Source of the DNA: Vicinamibacterales bacterium
GTDB lineage: Bacteria; Acidobacteriota; Vicinamibacteria; Vicinamibacterales; 2-12-FULL-66-21
Reading direction: 5' to 3'
Assembly: GCA_035711845.1 (NCBI GenBank)
Contig: DASTBU010000136.1
Span: 1 to 43,866, forward strand
DNA length: 43,866 nt
The position numbers and the translations under genes are program-made. Below, piece by piece: positions 3,262 through 43,866 of the stretch (its first letter is position 1; every line of letters begins with the position of its first letter). The notes beneath the pieces were generated by a model that saw nothing but the letters and a program-made list of their open reading frames with translations, was not told where the DNA came from and ran no database searches.

Positions 3262-3294
3262 TGAAGGCTGAAGTAGGGAGCCTTCAGCCTTTCA
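3262..3294. terminator. Stem-loop TGAAGGCTGAAG-tagggag-CTTCAGCCTTT at the amidohydrolase-stop/hpt-start junction
   Basis: ~10-bp stem seen directly. It overlaps the stop codon of the upstream gene and lacks a U-tract. It has the same GAAGGCTGAAG unit as the array at 26853. Confidence 0.5.
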
Positions 3295-4680
3295 TCTGAC
3301 TGCCTCGCGTACCTTCGCTGCCCAGGCGCGCGCGTCGTCGAGCACCGCGCGCTCGTTCAACGTCTGCACGCGCCGATCGCGCATCACGAGCTGCCCATTC
3401 ACGACCATGCTCTGCACGTCGTCGCCACGCGTCACGTAGACGAGGTGCGACACCGGATCGTAGAGAGGGGTCTGGCGCGCGCCCGACATCGAGACCACGA
3501 TCAGATCCGCGCGCTTGCCCGCCTCGAGGGAGCCGATCTCCCTGTCGAGCCCAAGCGCGCGCGCGCCGTCGATCGTGGCCATTCGGAGGGCGGTGGACGC
3601 CGGCAGCGCACGCGGATCACCGCTCGTCAGCTTGTGCAGCAGCGCAGCCTGACGCATCGCCTCGAACATGTCCAGGTCGTTGTTGCTGGCGGCCCCGTCC
3701 GTGCCCAGGCCGACCGGTACCGATGCTTTTCGCAGATCCAGAACGGGTGCAGTCCCGCTCGCGAGCTTCATGTTGCTTTCGGGGTTGTGCGCAAGCCCCA
3801 CATGCCGTCGGGCAAGGATCCGGATATCGGCCGGGGTCAGCCAGACCCCGTGCGCGGCAATGGTGCGTGGGCCCCAGAAGCCAATCCGCTCGAGATACTG
3901 CACCGGCGTCGCCTTGTACCGCTCGCGGGCGATCTTCACCTCCTCGCGTGTTTCGGCCAGGTGGATGATGACGGGCGCGCGCTCCCGATCCGCAACCGCG
4001 CGAATGGCCTTCAGCGTCGCCGTGTCCAGCGTGTACATGGCGTGTGGGGCGATGGCCGGAACGATCAACTCGTCGTTCGCCCACGCGCGAAGGAACACGG
4101 ACGCACGCGCGATGCCCTCGCTCGGCGTCTTCGCGTCGGGGGACGGGAACTCGATGATGGTCTGGCCGAGCACGCCGCGGATGCCGGCGTCCTTCGTAAC
4201 CCTGGCGATCTCCTCCTCGAAGTAGTACATGTCCGCGTAAGTGGTCGTTCCGGACTGGATCATCTCCAGGACGGCCAGCCGCGTGCCCGCGCGGACGAAC
4301 TCGGGGCTGACGGTCCTGGCCTCGGCTGGAAAGATGTACTTCTGCAGCCAGTCCATCAGGGCCAGGTCGTCCGCCAGGCCACGGTAGAGCACCATCGGCG
4401 CATGTGTATGTGTGTTGATGAGGCCGGGAAGGACAACGGCGCCGGAGGCGTCGAGGGTATCGCGCCCGGTGAACTGCGACGCGATGGCGTCGGGGCTGCC
4501 GACGGCGACGATATCTCGGCCATCGACGGCAAGCGCCCCCGGGGAAAGGACCCGATTCGAGGGGTCGGCTGTGACGATCGACCCGCCAGTGACGACCAGC
4601 GACACCTCGCGAGGCGCTGACTGCCAGGCCGGCAGGACGAGTCCTGCGGCCGCGAGGGCCGCGCAGAGCCACCACAGCAT
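3292..4680 (-). CDS. Amidohydrolase-superfamily deaminase/chlorohydrolase (MTA/SAH-deaminase or guanine-deaminase-like), secreted
   Basis: Metal-binding LPGLINTHTHAPM motif and TRZ/ATZ-like core. Probable start is MLWWLCAALAAAGLVLPA (signal peptide) at 4680. A longer ORF reaches 4719. Confidence 0.75.
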   Translation of the reverse strand: MLWWLCAALAAAGLVLPAWQSAPREVSLVVTGGSIVTADPSNRVLSPGALAVDGRDIVAVGSPDAIASQFTGRDTLDASGAVVLPGLINTHTHAPMVLYRGLADDLALMDWLQKYIFPAEARTVSPEFVRAGTRLAVLEMIQSGTTTYADMYYFEEEIARVTKDAGIRGVLGQTIIEFPSPDAKTPSEGIARASVFLRAWANDELIVPAIAPHAMYTLDTATLKAIRAVADRERAPVIIHLAETREEVKIARERYKATPVQYLERIGFWGPRTIAAHGVWLTPADIRILARRHVGLAHNPESNMKLASGTAPVLDLRKASVPVGLGTDGAASNNDLDMFEAMRQAALLHKLTSGDPRALPASTALRMATIDGARALGLDREIGSLEAGKRADLIVVSMSGARQTPLYDPVSHLVYVTRGDDVQSMVVNGQLVMRDRRVQTLNERAVLDDARAWAAKVREAVR

Positions 4681-4741
4681 TTGAGGGGAAAATTCTATCA
4701 GCCTTCTCCCTTTTCCCATTTCCGTTTTGTATAGTGAAGCC

Positions 4742-5362
4742 GTGCCGCTGCACCTCGTCCAGCATCCGCTCGTTCACGACGCCCTCGTGGCCTTGCGGGA
4801 CGCCGCCACCCCGCCCGAGCTGTTCCGGCGGATGGCCGTCCGCATCAGCCTGCTGCTCGCCTCGGAGGCGACCAGGGAGATTCCCGTCGAGGACGTGAGC
4901 GTCCTCACCCCCCTTGGACCGGCCGACGGGAGAAAAGTGCGTGATGGCGTGGTGGTCGTCCCGGTCCTGCGGGCTGGGCTGGGAATGTTGGATGCCGTGC
5001 TCGAGCTGATTCCGACGGCGCGCGTGGGCCACATCGGATTGCAGCGGGACGAGATCACCGCCGTGGCGTCACAGTACTACTCGAAGCTCCCGGGCAACCT
5101 CACCGGCGCGTTCGTCCTGATGATCGACCCCATGCTGGCCACGGGCGGAAGCGCCGTCGCCGCGCTCGATCTGCTGAGCCGGGCCGGGGCGCGCCACGTG
5201 CGCATGATTTGTATCGTTGCCGCCCCCGAGGGGATCGCCCTCGTGGAGCGCCACCACCCCGACGTCCACATCTACACGCCGGTGGTCGATCAGAAGCTGA
5301 ACGAGCACAAGTTCATCGTCCCGGGACTCGGAGACTTTGGCGACAGGCTGTACGGGACCTGA
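4742..5362 (+). CDS. upp: Uracil phosphoribosyltransferase
   Basis: VQHPLVHDALVALRD...VPVLRAGLGM...MIDPMLATGGSA is the Upp signature. A GTG start at 4742 is assumed (ORF opens at 4727). Confidence 0.85.
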   Translation: MPLHLVQHPLVHDALVALRDAATPPELFRRMAVRISLLLASEATREIPVEDVSVLTPLGPADGRKVRDGVVVVPVLRAGLGMLDAVLELIPTARVGHIGLQRDEITAVASQYYSKLPGNLTGAFVLMIDPMLATGGSAVAALDLLSRAGARHVRMICIVAAPEGIALVERHHPDVHIYTPVVDQKLNEHKFIVPGLGDFGDRLYGT

Positions 5363-5368
5363 CGCTGA

Positions 5369-5536
5369 CGTAATTCGTAGTTCGTGCTCCGTGGTTCGTA
5401 GTCCGTGGTCCGTAGTCTGTGAGACGTCGCTGGCACGTCGCACGAGCACACGTCGCACGTCGCACGTGACAAGCAGCACATCGCACATCACACGTAGCAC
5501 GTCGCACGTGACAAGTGGCAAGTGGCATGTGGCACC
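5369..5536. repeat. 24 consecutive phase-locked heptads (CGTNGTN x7, then TCGCACG/TGACAAG-like x~16)
   Basis: Hand-phased from 5369. Every 7-mer boundary is preserved across 168 bp. Lies between the upp stop and the citryl-CoA-lyase-like start. Confidence 0.9.
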
Positions 5537-5553
5537 CGCAAACCGAGGCCCCC

Positions 5554-6414
5554 ATGAAAGACCAAATGGTCAGAGACAGGCTCACACCGCGCGAGGAACG
5601 ACGCAGCCAGAAGCGCCTGGCCGAAGACGGGTGGCGGACCGCCTTGACCTGTATCGAGCCCAACAAAATCCTCGTCCGCGGGTTTCCGCTCGACGAGATG
5701 ATGGGCCGCCTGACATTCGGCGAGGCGATTTACCTGCTGCTGGTCGGAGAGGTCCCCTCACCGGCGATTGGCAGCCTCATGGAGGCGATGCTGGTCTCGT
5801 TCATCGATCACGGCGCGACGCCGCCATCGACGATGGCGGCGAGGAATACGGCAACGACGGGCGCGCCGCTGCGGGCGTGCGTGGCCGCAGGCGTGCTCGG
5901 GTTCGGCCGCTATCACGGCGGCGACATCCAAACCTGCATGACCTTTCTGGACGCCGGGCTCGACCTGGTGCGCGGCGAGGCGAGCTACCACGACGCGGCA
6001 ACAGAGATAGTGAGGCGATGCGAGGAAGCCGACGAGATACCGCCCGGCTTCGGGCACCGCTTCCATACACGCGATCCGCGGGCGGCGCGACTCTTCCAGA
6101 TGGCGCTCGAGCTGGAAGTCGAAGGGCAGCACATCCAGATGATCCGCGCCGTGGAGGTCGTCCTGAGCGAACGGCCGGACAGCCAGGGCCGGGTGCTGCC
6201 GGTGAACATCGACGGGGCCATCGCCGCAGTCTGCGGGGATCTGGGGCTGGCGCCGTCGATCGCGGAGGCGCTCTTCATCATCTCGCGCGTCCCCGGGATC
6301 ACTGCCCATGCCGACGAGGAGCGGGCGCGCCATGGACCGATGCGCCAGATCGATCCCAAGGAGCATCGCTACGACGGACCGTCCCAACGCCGGCTGCCGG
6401 AACGGCGCAAGTGA
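5554..6414 (+). CDS. Citrate synthase-family small protein (citryl-CoA lyase-like)
   Basis: 286 aa matching the C-terminal catalytic half of citrate synthase (GFGHRFHTRDPRA, VLPVNIDGAIAAV). Confidence 0.65.
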   Translation: MKDQMVRDRLTPREERRSQKRLAEDGWRTALTCIEPNKILVRGFPLDEMMGRLTFGEAIYLLLVGEVPSPAIGSLMEAMLVSFIDHGATPPSTMAARNTATTGAPLRACVAAGVLGFGRYHGGDIQTCMTFLDAGLDLVRGEASYHDAATEIVRRCEEADEIPPGFGHRFHTRDPRAARLFQMALELEVEGQHIQMIRAVEVVLSERPDSQGRVLPVNIDGAIAAVCGDLGLAPSIAEALFIISRVPGITAHADEERARHGPMRQIDPKEHRYDGPSQRRLPERRK

Positions 6415-6475
6415 CCGCCTCGCTGCGTTGCGGTGGTTGGAGGGCTGAGATAAACTGAGGTTCCGCACACGAGGT

Positions 6476-6550
6476 TGGGCGCTTGGCTCAGCGGTAGAGC
6501 ATCGCCTTCACACGGCGGGGGTCAGTGGTTCGAATCCACTAGCGCCCACC
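6476..6550 (+). tRNA. tRNA-Val (anticodon CAC)
   Basis: Cloverleaf folded by hand: acceptor GGGCGCT/AGCGCCC, D-arm GCTC-AGCGGTA-GAGC, anticodon stem TCGCC/GGCGG with loop TTCACAC, T-arm AGTGG-TTCGAATC-CCACT, encoded CCA. Confidence 0.85.
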
Positions 6551-6717
6551 AACCACAAACCCTAGTTCACCAGGGGCTTACCAGCAGCAGGCGCGTCGCC
6601 GTTGCACGCAGGGGGATGCTGAGTCGCCGGCTCGGTTGCAACGGGTTTGCAACGGCGGGCGGGGTTCGTCCCGAACCGACGCATGCTCTCCTCCAAGCCG
6701 ACCAGCGTGGCGTTGAG

Positions 6718-7680: not shown

Positions 7681-8491
7681 GATCTGGACCCTCTCTGTTG
7701 ACGGTTGGCGCGCTGAGAAAAACGATGCAGTCTGGCTCAGCCGCCGCGCGAACGCAACTGCTTTCTGGAATCTCCGGCTTCACAGAGGGGCGGCAAGGTG
7801 CTGGTCCCGAGCGCACGGAGCGTCCACCGCTTCGCGAAGCCGACGGATTATCGGAACGCGTTGCAAGCCATTGCAAACCGGCGGACGAAAACCCGAATAA
7901 AATCCGACGACGCATCGCCTGAATCCGACGATTGCGCAGCACGCGAACTGTTTTCTGCCCAGAAGTGGCCGCGGCGCATCGCCTACGTCCGCTGATCCCA
8001 TTCGACGCTTGAGTTGTTTTGCAACGGCTTGCGAGGTCCCGACAGGCAGCCGGAGCTATAAGAGTTGGTCTCAAAATGAAGGATCGGGGGGAACTTGTGG
8101 GCTGACACCGTGAGCAGATCAGCGTCGATATCCCGCACAGGTCTCGGTCCATGCCCTGAACTGCGTCCACGTGCAGATAGACGTGATCACGAGCAGGATG
8201 GCGCCGGCGGGACGTCTCCGATACTGTGCGCATGGAGTACGTGTCCAGAGTGCCGCGAGCGCCGCTGGAAGGGGCTGATCGACGACCTCTACTTTCGACC
8301 AGGCCCACTTCGGTCACGAGTTCCGGGCGTTCCCGGGCTCACGCCGACCCGGTACGTCGAAGTCCGGCGGCGGTTCCTGCACGAACATTCCGGCCACGTG
8401 CTGCACAGCTCGCCGCTGCCGGCCGATTGATTTCCTACAAGAGCGATAGCTCACAAAACGCTAATCTGACCCTAAAGCAGAGGAGAGCCCC

Positions 8492-22420: not shown

Positions 22421-22797
22421 GTCCCTGGTCGCTCAGTCCCTGGTCGCTGGTCCCTTGGTCCTCGGTCCCTGGTCGCTGGTCGCTGGTCCCTTGGTCCTGG
22501 GTCCCTGGTCTCGGGTACCTTGGTCCTCGGTCGCTCATCCCGTGTCCTTTGGTCCTCAGTCTTGGGACCGACCCTGGTCGGAATACTAACGCATCCCCGG
22601 AGGTCGACCGAGTCCAAGCCAAGAGAGGACGCACGGTAAGGGAGGAGGCAAGGGACTCAGGACGAAGGGACCCAGGACGAAGGGACCAACGACTGAGGGA
22701 CCGACCAGGGACCGAGGGACCCGGGACCGAGGGACCCGGGACTGAGGGACCCGGGACTGAGGGACCCGGGACTAAGGGACCAAGGGACCAAGGGACT
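22421..22797. repeat. Composite inverted tandem-repeat element (GGTCCCT/GGTCGCT units on the left arm, GGGACCGAGGGACCC units on the right arm, ~100-bp unique centre)
   Basis: Direct reading: the left arm is the reverse complement of the right-arm unit. The patatin-like gene's stop codon lies in the right arm, and the metB-like ATG abuts the left arm. Confidence 0.9.
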
Positions 22798-25549: not shown

Positions 25550-26875
25550 ATGTCTCTTTTCGACGACCCGGAACCGGAAGCAACCATCCCCGCCACATCC
25601 CCGCTGGCCGAACGCATGCGGCCGCGCACGCTCGACGAATTCGTGGGACAGGATGCGCTGCTCGCTCCCGGACGGCCGTTGCGCCAGGCGATCGAGCAGG
25701 ACCGCCTGCAGTCGCTGATTCTCTGGGGTCCTCCAGGAACCGGCAAGACAACGCTCGCCCGTCTCGTCGCCAGGGTCACCCGCGCCCAGTTCACCTCGTT
25801 CAGCGCGGTGCTCTCGGGCATCAAGGAGATCCGGACCGTGATGGCCGAAGCGGAGGAGGCGCGGCGTCGGCGCGGACGGAGGACCCTGCTCTTCGTGGAC
25901 GAGATCCACCGCTTCAACAAGGCGCAACAGGACGCGTTCCTGCCGCGTGTCGAGGCGGGCGACATCGTGCTGATCGGCGCGACCACGGAGAACCCGTCCT
26001 TCGAGGTGAACTCCGCGCTGTTGTCGCGGTCCAAGGTGTACGTGCTTCAGCCACTCGGTCCGGAGGCGATCGTGACCATCCTGCGCCGGGCCCTCTCGGA
26101 CGCCGAGCGGGGACTCGGAGCGATGAACCTCGGCGTCGAGGAAGAAGCGCTCGCGGCCATCGCGCGCTATGCCAACGGGGACGCTCGCGTTGCGCTGAAC
26201 CTCATCGAGATGGCGTCGGGGGCGGCCGCGGGCTCCGGGCGGATCGACGCGGCGATGATTGCGGACCTGGCGCAGAACCGGGCGCTGCTGTACGACAAGT
26301 CCGGCGAGGAACACTACAACCTGATCTCGGCGCTGCACAAATCCATGCGTAACAGCGATCCGGACGCCTCCGTGTACTGGCTGGCTCGCATGCTCGAAGC
26401 CGGCGAGGACCCGCTCTATGTCGCCAGGCGCCTGGTGAGGTTCGCCTCGGAAGACGTCGGGAACGCCGACCCCCAGGCGCTGGCGATCGCGGTCGCGGCC
26501 AAGGACGCCGTTCACTTCATCGGCATGCCCGAAGGCAATACCGCACTGGCCCAGGCCGTCATCTACCTGGCGACCACACCGAAGAGCAACGCGGTGTACA
26601 CCGCGTACCTGCAGGCAGCGGAGGCGGCCGCCAGCGAGATTGCCGAACCCGTGCCGCTGCACCTGCGGAATGCCCCTACGCGCCTGATGAAACAGCTCGA
26701 ATACGGAAAGGGGTACAAGTACGCCCACGACGAACCGGAGGGTATAGCGGAAATGGAATGCCTGCCCCCTGCGCACCGCGGGCGGAAGTTCTACCGGCCC
26801 ACGAACCGGGGCCGCGAGGCAGCGGTCAGAAAGTGGATGGAGGAGAAAGTTAGAAGGCTGAAGGCTGAAGGCTGA
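25550..26875 (+). CDS. rarA: Replication-associated recombination protein A (AAA+ ATPase)
   Basis: Walker A GPPGTGKTT, Walker B LLFVDEIHRFNK, and the MgsA C-terminal domain. The last residues (LKAEG) are encoded by the GAAGGCT array. Confidence 0.9.
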   Translation: MSLFDDPEPEATIPATSPLAERMRPRTLDEFVGQDALLAPGRPLRQAIEQDRLQSLILWGPPGTGKTTLARLVARVTRAQFTSFSAVLSGIKEIRTVMAEAEEARRRRGRRTLLFVDEIHRFNKAQQDAFLPRVEAGDIVLIGATTENPSFEVNSALLSRSKVYVLQPLGPEAIVTILRRALSDAERGLGAMNLGVEEEALAAIARYANGDARVALNLIEMASGAAAGSGRIDAAMIADLAQNRALLYDKSGEEHYNLISALHKSMRNSDPDASVYWLARMLEAGEDPLYVARRLVRFASEDVGNADPQALAIAVAAKDAVHFIGMPEGNTALAQAVIYLATTPKSNAVYTAYLQAAEAAASEIAEPVPLHLRNAPTRLMKQLEYGKGYKYAHDEPEGIAEMECLPPAHRGRKFYRPTNRGREAAVRKWMEEKVRRLKAEG

Positions 26876-26929
26876 AGGCTGAAGGAACTTCAGCGTTCCA
26901 CCTTCAGCCTTCCACCTCAGCTTTGAAGG
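26853..26929. repeat. (GAAGGCT)x4.5 tandem array followed by its inverted complement (multi-hairpin) between convergent rarA and protease genes
   Basis: GAAGGCTGAAGGCTGAAGGCTGAAGGCTGAAGG, then AACTTCAGCGTTCCACCTTCAGCCTTCCACCTCAGC. Both gene stop codons lie inside it. Confidence 0.85.
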
Positions 26930-32121: not shown

Positions 32122-32261
32122 CAGTTACCAGTTTCCAGTTTCCAGTTCCCAGTTTCCAGTTTCCAGTTTCCAGTTCTCAGTTTCCAGTTCCCAGTTTCCA
32201 GTTCGCCCCCTCAGCTGCCAGCTCCACTAACCGGCAACTGGGAACTGGAAACTGAGAACTG
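32122..32261. repeat. 12 tandem CAGTTTC/CAGTTCC heptads, 30-bp centre, then inverted (AACTGGG AACTGGA AACTGAG) units
   Basis: Hand-phased. Occupies the whole corA-stop to mutL-start gap and begins 8 bp from the mutL ATG. Confidence 0.9.
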
Positions 32262-39864: not shown

Positions 39865-39871
39865 GGGAGTG

Positions 39872-40075
39872 CTGAGTTCTGAATGCTGAATGCTGAATGC
39901 TGAATGCTGAATGCCAAAAATGCCAACTGCTGCCGAATCGCTCGCCCTTTGCTGAACGTCATTACACCCCACATTCAGCACTCAGCATTCAACATTCAGC
40001 ATTCCCTTGAATCGCTTGCCTCCTGCTGAACGTCATCCCAATTCAGCATTCAGCATTCGACATTCAGCATTCATT
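39872..40075. repeat. (TGAATGC)x5 - spacer - inverted (ATTCAGC)x4 - duplicated spacer - inverted x4
   Basis: Direct reading. The 30-bp spacer GAATCGCT(C/T)GCC..TGCTGAACGTCAT occurs twice. Fills the whole mgtE-stop to recO-start gap. Confidence 0.9.
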
Positions 40076-43547: not shown

Positions 43548-43552
43548 CGATC

Positions 43553-43866
43553 GGTCCCTCGTCCCTCGATCCCATGGTCCCTGGTCCCTCGGTCCCTCGG
43601 TCCTGGGTCCCTGGTCCGGGTCCCGGGGTCCCTGGTCCGGGTCCGGGGTCCCTGGTCCGGGTCCCGGGTCCCTGGTCCGGTCGCGGGGTCCCTGGTCCGG
43701 TCGCGGGGTCCCTGGTCCCTCGGTCCTTCAATCTCGGGTCCCTCACGAACGGGGTGCGACTCGAGACCGGGGACTCAGGAGCAGCGACCCCGGACCGAGG
43801 GACCCCGGACCGAGGGACCCCGGACCGAGGGACCCCGGACCGAGGGACCCCAGACCGAGGGACCCC
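43553..43866. repeat. Second copy of the GGTCCCT / CCGGACCGAGGGACC composite inverted repeat family (runs off the window end)
   Basis: Left arm GGTCCCTGGTCCGGGTCCCGG repeats; centre containing GGGGACTCAGGAGCAGCGACC; right arm (CCGGACCGAGGGACC)x5. Same unit and same GGGACTCAGGA centre motif as the 22.4-kb locus. Confidence 0.9.

Follow-up and report, generated by a model that had tools for sequence, protein, structure and literature searches.

A stretch of 43,866 nucleotides (nt) from a Vicinamibacterales bacterium (contig DASTBU010000136.1, hereafter the window) carries an array of seven-nucleotide repeats at positions 5369–5536, in the noncoding DNA that separates the upp stop codon (5362) from the start codon (ATG at 5554) of a citryl-CoA lyase-like gene. 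In our judgement this array is probably a compound, degenerate heptanucleotide microsatellite of the long simple sequence repeat (LSSR) or variable number tandem repeat (VNTR) class, which expanded recently by slippage in the spacer of an operon and has no dedicated function. It is a direct array without a hairpin, one example of how heptad arrays tend to grow in spacers throughout the order. The evidence comes from the repeat architecture, from a set of ten soil-metagenome contigs (L001–L010, of which L001 is 4.7 Mb long) encoding an identical downstream protein of 286 amino acids, and from 104 more distantly related loci. The features of the locus are the following.

4727–5362, plus strand: upp, first gene of the conserved pair, encoding uracil phosphoribosyltransferase
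5363–5368, plus strand: unique hexanucleotide CGCTGA directly behind the upp stop codon, including a second in-frame TGA
5369–5417, plus strand: block A, seven CGTRSTY heptads in constant phase, with a lag-7 identity of 0.76 and a 14-nt higher-order period
5418–5432, plus strand: non-repetitive 15-nt junction TGTGAGACGTCGCTG, the same in eight of the eight contigs that reach this point
5433–5447, plus strand: block B1, two GCACG-type units, GCACGTC followed by the 8-nt GCACGAGC, one base off the register of block B2
5448–5536, plus strand: block B2, about 13 degenerate heptads NNGCACG/GTSGCAM in constant register, the polymorphic core of the array
5537–5553, plus strand: unique 17-nt tail CGCAAACCGAGGCCCCC, invariant in all ten contigs and holding the motif GAGG
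5554–6414, plus strand: citryl-CoA lyase-like gene of 286 amino acids with a citrate synthase C-terminal domain, the downstream gene of the pair

Autocorrelation over 5369–5536 gave an identity of 0.64 at lag 7 and of 0.58, 0.57 and 0.50 at lags 14, 21 and 28, with all remaining lags at 0.10–0.30, and the highest identity reached at lags 2–12 in 20,000 shuffles was 0.41. The head-to-tail repetition of a short unit is therefore beyond chance, as in LSSR and VNTR loci with units of 5–11 nt. The initial annotation had described 24 consecutive heptads in perfect phase. Set out in heptads from 5369, the sequence agrees with the units listed there, and the strong 7-nt periodicity stands, but the count and the unbroken phase do not, as seven units are followed by the junction, two units, a slip and 13 further units. 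In block A the units run CGTAATT CGTAGTT CGTGCTC CGTGGTT CGTAGTC CGTGGTC CGTAGTC, with CGT at phase 0 from 5369 to 5411, and in the segment 5418–5452 the lag-7 identity drops to the background level of 0.32. Phase analysis placed the GCACG core in phase 1 at 5433 and 5440 and in phase 2 from 5448 to 5532, the single 8-nt unit causing a register slip of +1 at 5440–5448, where Tandem Repeats Finder (TRF) also reports indels. The related proposal that the register is kept across the two unit families has no defined meaning, since the families are unrelated and split by non-repeat sequence. TRF divides the region in three, 5376–5417 (CGTAGTC, 6 copies), 5433–5509 (GCACGTC, 10.9 copies, with indels) and 5504–5534 (GCAAGTG, 4.4 copies), and adds longer periods (14, 21 and 42 nt), of which the last is represented by 2.0 copies with 90% matches. 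Block B2 itself has higher-order repeats of 21, 28 and 42 nt and ends with the units TGACAAG TGGCAAG TGGCATG TGGCACC. The units are degenerate (70–84% matches by TRF) and the longest perfect run comprises two of them. With up to two mismatches allowed, no other copy of either unit pair was found in the 43.9-kb window, which argues against an interspersed element.

Several other readings of the array were considered and rejected. A G-quadruplex or i-motif was ruled out by the lack of G or C runs: no run of at least three occurs inside the array except a CCC straddling its last two bases (5535–5537), and one further C run, CCCCC, lies in the unique tail outside it. Blocks A and B do not form a decayed inverted pair, as their units are not complementary even when G-U pairs are included. 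A coding repeat or leader peptide was dismissed because the open reading frames (ORFs) crossing the array are out-of-frame or antisense shadows of upp or of the lyase gene, and the in-frame ATG at 5527 has neither a Shine-Dalgarno sequence nor a counterpart in relatives. The array is thus noncoding, since the 7-nt indels among its alleles would shift any reading frame. A three-frame stop barrier was likewise discarded, stop codons being found in just two of the three plus-strand frames.

The flanks of the ten contigs are 96–99.6% identical to the window, and the array is present in each of the ten, although its alleles differ. The block A region measures 55 nt in the window and in L002–L004, 48 nt in L006 and L007 (one heptad fewer, six units) and 47 nt in L001 and L005. 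Block B occurs as six distinct alleles (103, 125, 131, 132, 159 and 159 nt), the shortest in the window, followed by L008 (125 nt), L005 (131 nt), L002, L003, L006 and L007 (132 nt) and finally L001 and L004, whose alleles share the length of 159 nt but are unlike in sequence. The differences from the window amount to 22, 28, 29 or 56 nt, whole repeat blocks being gained or lost. The recurrent step is 28 nt, the four heptads GCACGTC GCACGTT GCACGTG ACAAGCA, and in L008 a 22-nt duplication takes in the irregular 8-nt unit. Changes of a single heptad in block A and of these blocks in block B, among contigs with an identical protein, bear out the earlier suggestion of stepwise slippage and duplication; the variation in unit count that the initial annotation had proposed to look for in relatives is found here, among contigs sharing the downstream protein. 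No allele differs from the others in the junction, in the final ~70 nt of block B or in the 17-nt tail. Furthermore, the same alleles were recovered from independent samples (L002 equals L003, L006 equals L007), which argues against assembly error. A look-up of the exact upp protein returned no further alleles on record.

The array does end 17 bp before the ATG at 5554, as noted initially, yet the accompanying claims that the ribosome-binding site lies in or is built from the array and that the promoter must lie there were not supported. The Shine-Dalgarno sequence GAGG sits at 5546–5549, 4 nt 5' of the ATG, in the unique tail outside the array; this tail is the same in all ten contigs and is still recognisable (GAGGG-CCCC-ATG) in L035 and L036, two array-free loci of the closest relatives. 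A consensus scan of 4500–6600 found no sigma-70-like site, though such a scan may not fit Acidobacteriota promoters, and scanning of the same interval showed no intrinsic terminator in the spacer. The units TGGCAAG, TGGCATG and TGGCACC were also judged by eye as a possible sigma-54 promoter and rejected for lack of the GG-N10-GC spacing. The minimum free energy (MFE) of the spacer is −61 to −69 kcal/mol versus means of −70 to −78 kcal/mol for dinucleotide shuffles, that is z = +2.0 to +2.35 on both strands, and the MFE structure leaves the Shine-Dalgarno sequence and the AUG unpaired. A permissive Rfam search of 5300–5620 gave just a chance match to a small nucleolar RNA (E = 0.43). An RNA hairpin, a terminator and a riboswitch were rejected, given less structure than in shuffles and the negative terminator scan and Rfam search. 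Folding predictions suggest that the array would form an unstructured, untranslated stretch of the operon mRNA.

Protein-based searches of GTDB genomes assign the locus to the Vicinamibacterales in the Acidobacteriota. The wider comparison covered 24 GTDB species and 80 metagenome loci (L011–L114), with 59–89% protein identity. In these 104 loci upp almost always lies directly upstream of the lyase gene, and for the 75 loci that allowed both gene ends to be located the spacing is mostly −14, −4 or +2 to +20 nt. Because the genes overlap or abut in most of the placed loci, as is usual with co-transcription and translational coupling, upp and the lyase gene are most likely co-transcribed as an operon, and a pair so organised does not need a separate promoter. 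The CGTRSTY/GCACGTC array was absent from the orthologous spacer in all 104 loci. The closest relatives, L035 (89% protein identity) and L036 (88%), have a spacer of ~80 nt without repeats, which ends in GAGGGCCCC-ATG and so matches GAGGCCCCC-ATG of the window. In the L036 spacer CGTGG-like motifs are followed by GCACGTGA-like motifs in the order of blocks A and B, which is a weak hint. An array confined to one species-level lineage and absent from its relatives indicates a recent in situ expansion from a short operon spacer. Furthermore, the lack of a repeat at orthologous sites with the flanking genes kept speaks against conserved regulation; at the species level this is the outcome that the initial annotation had itself named as a refutation. 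Two of the related loci have spacers of their own kind. At L112 (59% protein identity, positions 1479–1518) seven CGAGNNN heptads, an array that arose independently, fill the upp/lyase spacer, starting at the stop codon and stopping 2 nt short of the ATG, and at L013 (about 2776–2995) a spacer of ~218 nt consists of two direct copies of a non-heptad sequence of ~100 nt.

The identities of both flanking genes, as first named, proved correct. The upp product matches the Pfam family UPRTase (E = 1.2e-66) and NCBIfam NF001097 (246 bits, cutoff 114); gene calls are also available in L002–L004, and the call in L001 gives an alternative upp start, GTG at 4742. The lyase-like product matches Pfam PF00285 (E = 5e-35) and NCBIfam NF004866 (246.2 bits, cutoff 245) and NF004869 (229 bits, cutoff 212), and its start at ATG 5554 is fixed by alignment with L035 and L036.

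We propose that replication slippage or unequal pairing would have expanded heptads in the short upp/lyase spacer of one species lineage within the Vicinamibacterales, and that present-day change may proceed mainly by duplication and deletion of 28- and 42-nt blocks. The array would be transcribed within the upp-lyase operon mRNA as an unstructured, untranslated intercistronic spacer, while translation of the lyase gene would start independently at the GAGG of the 17-nt tail. Likely side effects are that the close coupling found in relatives disappears and that the stretch of naked RNA lengthens. The unit size of 7 nt would stem from a lineage-wide mutational bias and not from selection at the locus, as would fit the polymerase-slippage idea for heptanucleotide LSSRs.

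The window contains seven further period-7 sites and no array at any other lag between 4 and 12. They are listed here together with the only match in the window at Rfam gathering score.

3262–3294: small inverted pair TGAAGGCTGAAG ... CTTCAGCCTTTCA between the stop codon of an amidohydrolase gene and the start of the next gene, a hairpin as read from the sequence
4702–4728: site in the divergent spacer between the amidohydrolase gene and upp, the one site that is not an inverted pair
22421–22561 and 22650–22796: GGTCCCT / AGGGACC, two arrays of ~140 nt around a centre of ~90 nt, with hairpin z = −8 (plus strand) and −9.6 (minus strand)
26853–26885 and 26888–26921: perfect GAAGGCT in 4.7 copies and then its reverse complement, between convergent genes, hairpin z = −5.3
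32122–32204 and 32236–32261: CAGTTTC/GAAACTG between co-directional minus-strand genes, with unequal arms of 11.7 versus 3.7 units
39867–39914 and 39972–40073: TGCTGAA/TTCAGCA between co-directional minus-strand genes
43551–43726 and 43764–43866: inverted pair GGTCCCT / GGGACC, the unit family as at 22421
6477–6551: tRNA-Val, 3' of the lyase gene, with its Rfam match at 6477–6548

Six of the seven sites are thus pairs of reverse-complementary heptad arrays, and the five pairs that were folded yield long hairpins with z values from −5 to −9.6 (−5.5 to −8.4 for the pairs at 32122–32261 and 39867–40073). The arrays at 22421–22796 have a partly 15-nt (7+8) period and fill the spacer of two minus-strand genes, the left array lying 4 nt from the downstream start codon. 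The hairpin at 26853–26921 has no T-run, and the stop codon of the plus-strand gene apparently falls inside the array. That the window ends within the second arm of the pair at 43551–43866 suggests that the contig broke at the repeat during assembly. The small hairpin at 3262–3294 has two heptads per arm in the window versus ~5 per arm in L001 (7605–7690), a genome ~98% identical; growth of both arms in concert is unexplained by simple one-sided slippage. Two strain differences are unconnected with heptads: near 8293 the window lacks ~410 nt that are found in L001 (12726–13137), and a 7-nt indel at window position 8176, considered as a possible repeat change, is unrelated to any repeat.

Across the 356 kb of the 104 related loci, period 7 accounts for 40 of 52 tandem arrays (77%) with at least four copies, about 110 per Mb, built of dozens of differing units. 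Array density is about 110–160 per Mb in the sampled Vicinamibacterales DNA, and every array of the related loci is either intergenic or falls within the 5' overhang of a stop-to-stop ORF. In the window some arrays end 4–20 nt upstream of start codons. That arrays occur in co-directional, convergent and divergent spacers alike is consistent with a general process of mutation. In L011, L012, L015, L020, L022, L024, L025, L028, L051, L053 and L057 heptad arrays occupy the divergent amidohydrolase–upp spacer, with a unit that differs by species; on the upp sense strand most units of the arrays upstream of upp contain more C than G. In L051, L053 and L057 this unit is of a GTCGCAC type and resembles target block B, but lies upstream of upp. 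Reverse complementation and rotation turn the Nostoc heptad GGGGATT into the L015 unit CCAATCC, the AGGGACC of the window resembles GGGACCG of Geobacter, and several relatives have NNNCTGA units like the published TAACTGA or MTYCTGA.

Some of our own observations weigh against a slippage-driven expansion without dedicated function. Both the operon reading and the statement that there is no promoter rest on synteny and on a sigma-70 consensus scan that may be unfit for Acidobacteriota, and the neutrality of the array is taken as the default. All alleles agree in the junction and in the 3' half of block B, which may reflect constraint or merely the very low divergence of the contigs. Most alleles come from short-read assemblies, which are prone to mis-size tandem repeats. 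In addition, a GTCGCAC-type unit recurs near upp in L051, L053 and L057, and the units NNNCTGA, GGGACCG and GGGGATT recur across sites and phyla, which slippage blind to sequence does not predict.

The array might be a tunable repeat of the contingency type, a transcribed leader or intercistronic spacer with its length setting lyase expression through the promoter-to-start distance or through Rho-dependent polarity; we regard this as unlikely. Long unstructured, untranslated RNA is the type of substrate used by Rho, and the RNA predicted here is unusually unstructured and untranslated over about 190–250 nt, but the composition of block B (35 C versus 30 G) is weak for a Rho utilization site. 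The position immediately before the start codon and the length polymorphism among near-identical genomes would suit such a role, yet with perfect runs of at most two units the slippage rate is expected to be far below that of true phase-variable tracts. A heptameric simple sequence repeat (SSR) in a 5' untranslated region (UTR) is a proven expression rheostat in Haemophilus influenzae (PMC12721329) and the nearest model for this reading, but the hmw mechanism requires a 5'-UTR hairpin cut by RNase III, whereas the target RNA folds worse than its shuffles. Moreover, the downstream gene encodes a housekeeping-type metabolic enzyme and not a surface antigen, and this free-living soil lineage has arrays in every kind of spacer, even convergent ones with no 5' end. 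A more far-reaching reading is that a lineage-specific active process going beyond passive polymerase slippage, or a factor reading heptads, seeds and grows 7-nt arrays, both hairpin arms included, in most Vicinamibacterales spacers, the arrays being evolvable spacers that tune intercistronic coupling, RNA processing or Rho polarity. This we consider distinctly unlikely; if it were true, the array between upp and the lyase gene would be a single length-adjustable member of a genome-wide system undescribed for Acidobacteriota.

It is very unlikely that the heptads are iterated DNA or mRNA binding sites of a factor reading 7-nt units, a role of the type proposed for the TAACTGA repeats 5' of start codons in Beggiatoaceae and for heptanucleotide elements of Geobacter metallireducens. 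Such a factor could account for the window arrays that end shortly 5' of start codons, for the GTCGCAC-type unit again beside upp in other species, for the unit families shared over loci and phyla, and for the UAG/UGG triplets spaced at 7 nt in block A. Against it, the dozens of unrelated units in the clade leave no single reader, the orthologous spacers of about 100 species have no array, and the units are degenerate and vary in copy number even within the species. Insertion of a mobile or interspersed element between the genes, similar to a miniature inverted-repeat transposable element (MITE), a repetitive extragenic palindromic (REP) sequence or a bacterial interspersed mosaic element, would explain an array present in one lineage and missing from all others, and the inverted hairpin pairs elsewhere in the window recall the REP doublets termed REPINs. 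Nevertheless we find it highly improbable, as the target has no inverted or terminal repeats, no stable hairpin and no further units in the window, and varies by internal repeat blocks and not by presence or absence, and as the closest relatives, which have no array, already possess a spacer of 80 nt in which motifs similar to both unit families appear in the same order. The hairpin at 3262–3294, the size of which differs greatly between two close genomes, is present in both of them and differs in unit number alone. Finally, it is hardly credible that the repeat or its length differences are products of short-read mis-assembly: most contigs are short-read metagenome assemblies, L008–L010 start or end inside the array and the window itself terminates in another heptad array, but the architecture is common to 11 independent assemblies including the 4.7-Mb contig, identical alleles come from different samples with an invariant junction and tail, and the block lengths are below or near typical read and k-mer lengths.

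Taken alone, the locus is an ordinary microsatellite of low interest, and its annotation as a promoter, ribosome-binding site or regulatory RNA is unwarranted. It provides a natural example of a tight two-gene operon junction spread by 190–250 nt of repeat within one species. The order-wide richness in heptads is a modestly interesting lead: heptanucleotide arrays are extremely frequent in the Vicinamibacterales, a soil order that is abundant and for the most part uncultured. Why bacterial long SSRs favour 7-nt units has been an open question since 2007, and the many metagenome strains of this clade, with both direct and hairpin arrays, are material with which the mutational process can be measured. 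In practice, heptad arrays break short-read assemblies and may serve as strain-typing markers.

Heptanucleotide LSSRs are, according to Mrazek et al. 2007 as cited in PMC4679880 and PMC4692102, the most abundant class of long SSR in many bacteria, notably in large GC-rich genomes of non-pathogens, and a slippage bias related to the polymerase footprint was proposed as their cause. As far as the class is described in these citing papers, the target resembles it in its intergenic tandem 7-nt units, longer than expected by chance, in a GC-rich, free-living host with a large genome and a dominant period of 7, and in the fast change of length and sequence between close relatives. It departs from that description in being compound, with two unit families, degenerate, and changing mostly by 28- and 42-nt blocks. 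Full-text searches of the literature library returned no report of such repeats in Acidobacteriota or Vicinamibacterales. The GGGAATC / GGGGAYT heptamers of Xanthomonas and Nostoc are G-rich and form G-quadruplexes, with four units preferred (Rehm et al. 2015, PMC4692102). Like the target they are intergenic, often occupy the same spacer in related strains and vary in length and sequence, and inverted stem-loop pairs also occur (PMC4692102); in contrast, the target has another unit without G-runs, and the Vicinamibacterales units are diverse and not one family. The (ATCTTTC)n tract in the 5'-UTR of H. influenzae hmw1A consists of perfect, numerous repeats; it supplies one side of a long hairpin that RNase III cleaves, and it governs a surface adhesin (PMC12721329). 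The target shares with it heptads just 5' of the start codon, in a region presumably transcribed, and a strain-variable copy number, but differs in its degenerate units, unstructured RNA (z = +2) and metabolic gene.

Similarly, the TAACTGA direct repeats of marine Beggiatoaceae, cyanobacteria and Bacteroidetes have one conserved unit, mostly in 2–6 copies, for which a post-transcriptional role was proposed (MacGregor 2015, PMC4679880). These repeats and the cyanobacterial heptamers known as short tandemly repeated repetitive (STRR) sequences are, like the target, intergenic direct heptamers within a few nt of start codons; unlike TAACTGA, the target unit is specific to its locus and the array is not kept even between sister species. 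The "global regulatory" heptanucleotide elements of Geobacter metallireducens (GGGACCG in four and MTYCTGA in five units) are multicopy, have a fixed number of 4–5 units and were found by genome-wide BLAST (PMC2700814). Both cases concern short tandem heptads in a soil or sediment bacterium of high GC content, and the units of other window arrays (AGGGACC, TGCTGAA) are similar, whereas the target units are unique within the window and the array is variable in size. We therefore place the target in the known LSSR/VNTR kind; it shows none of the tested features of contingency loci, G-quadruplex repeats, REP or MITE elements and structured RNAs.

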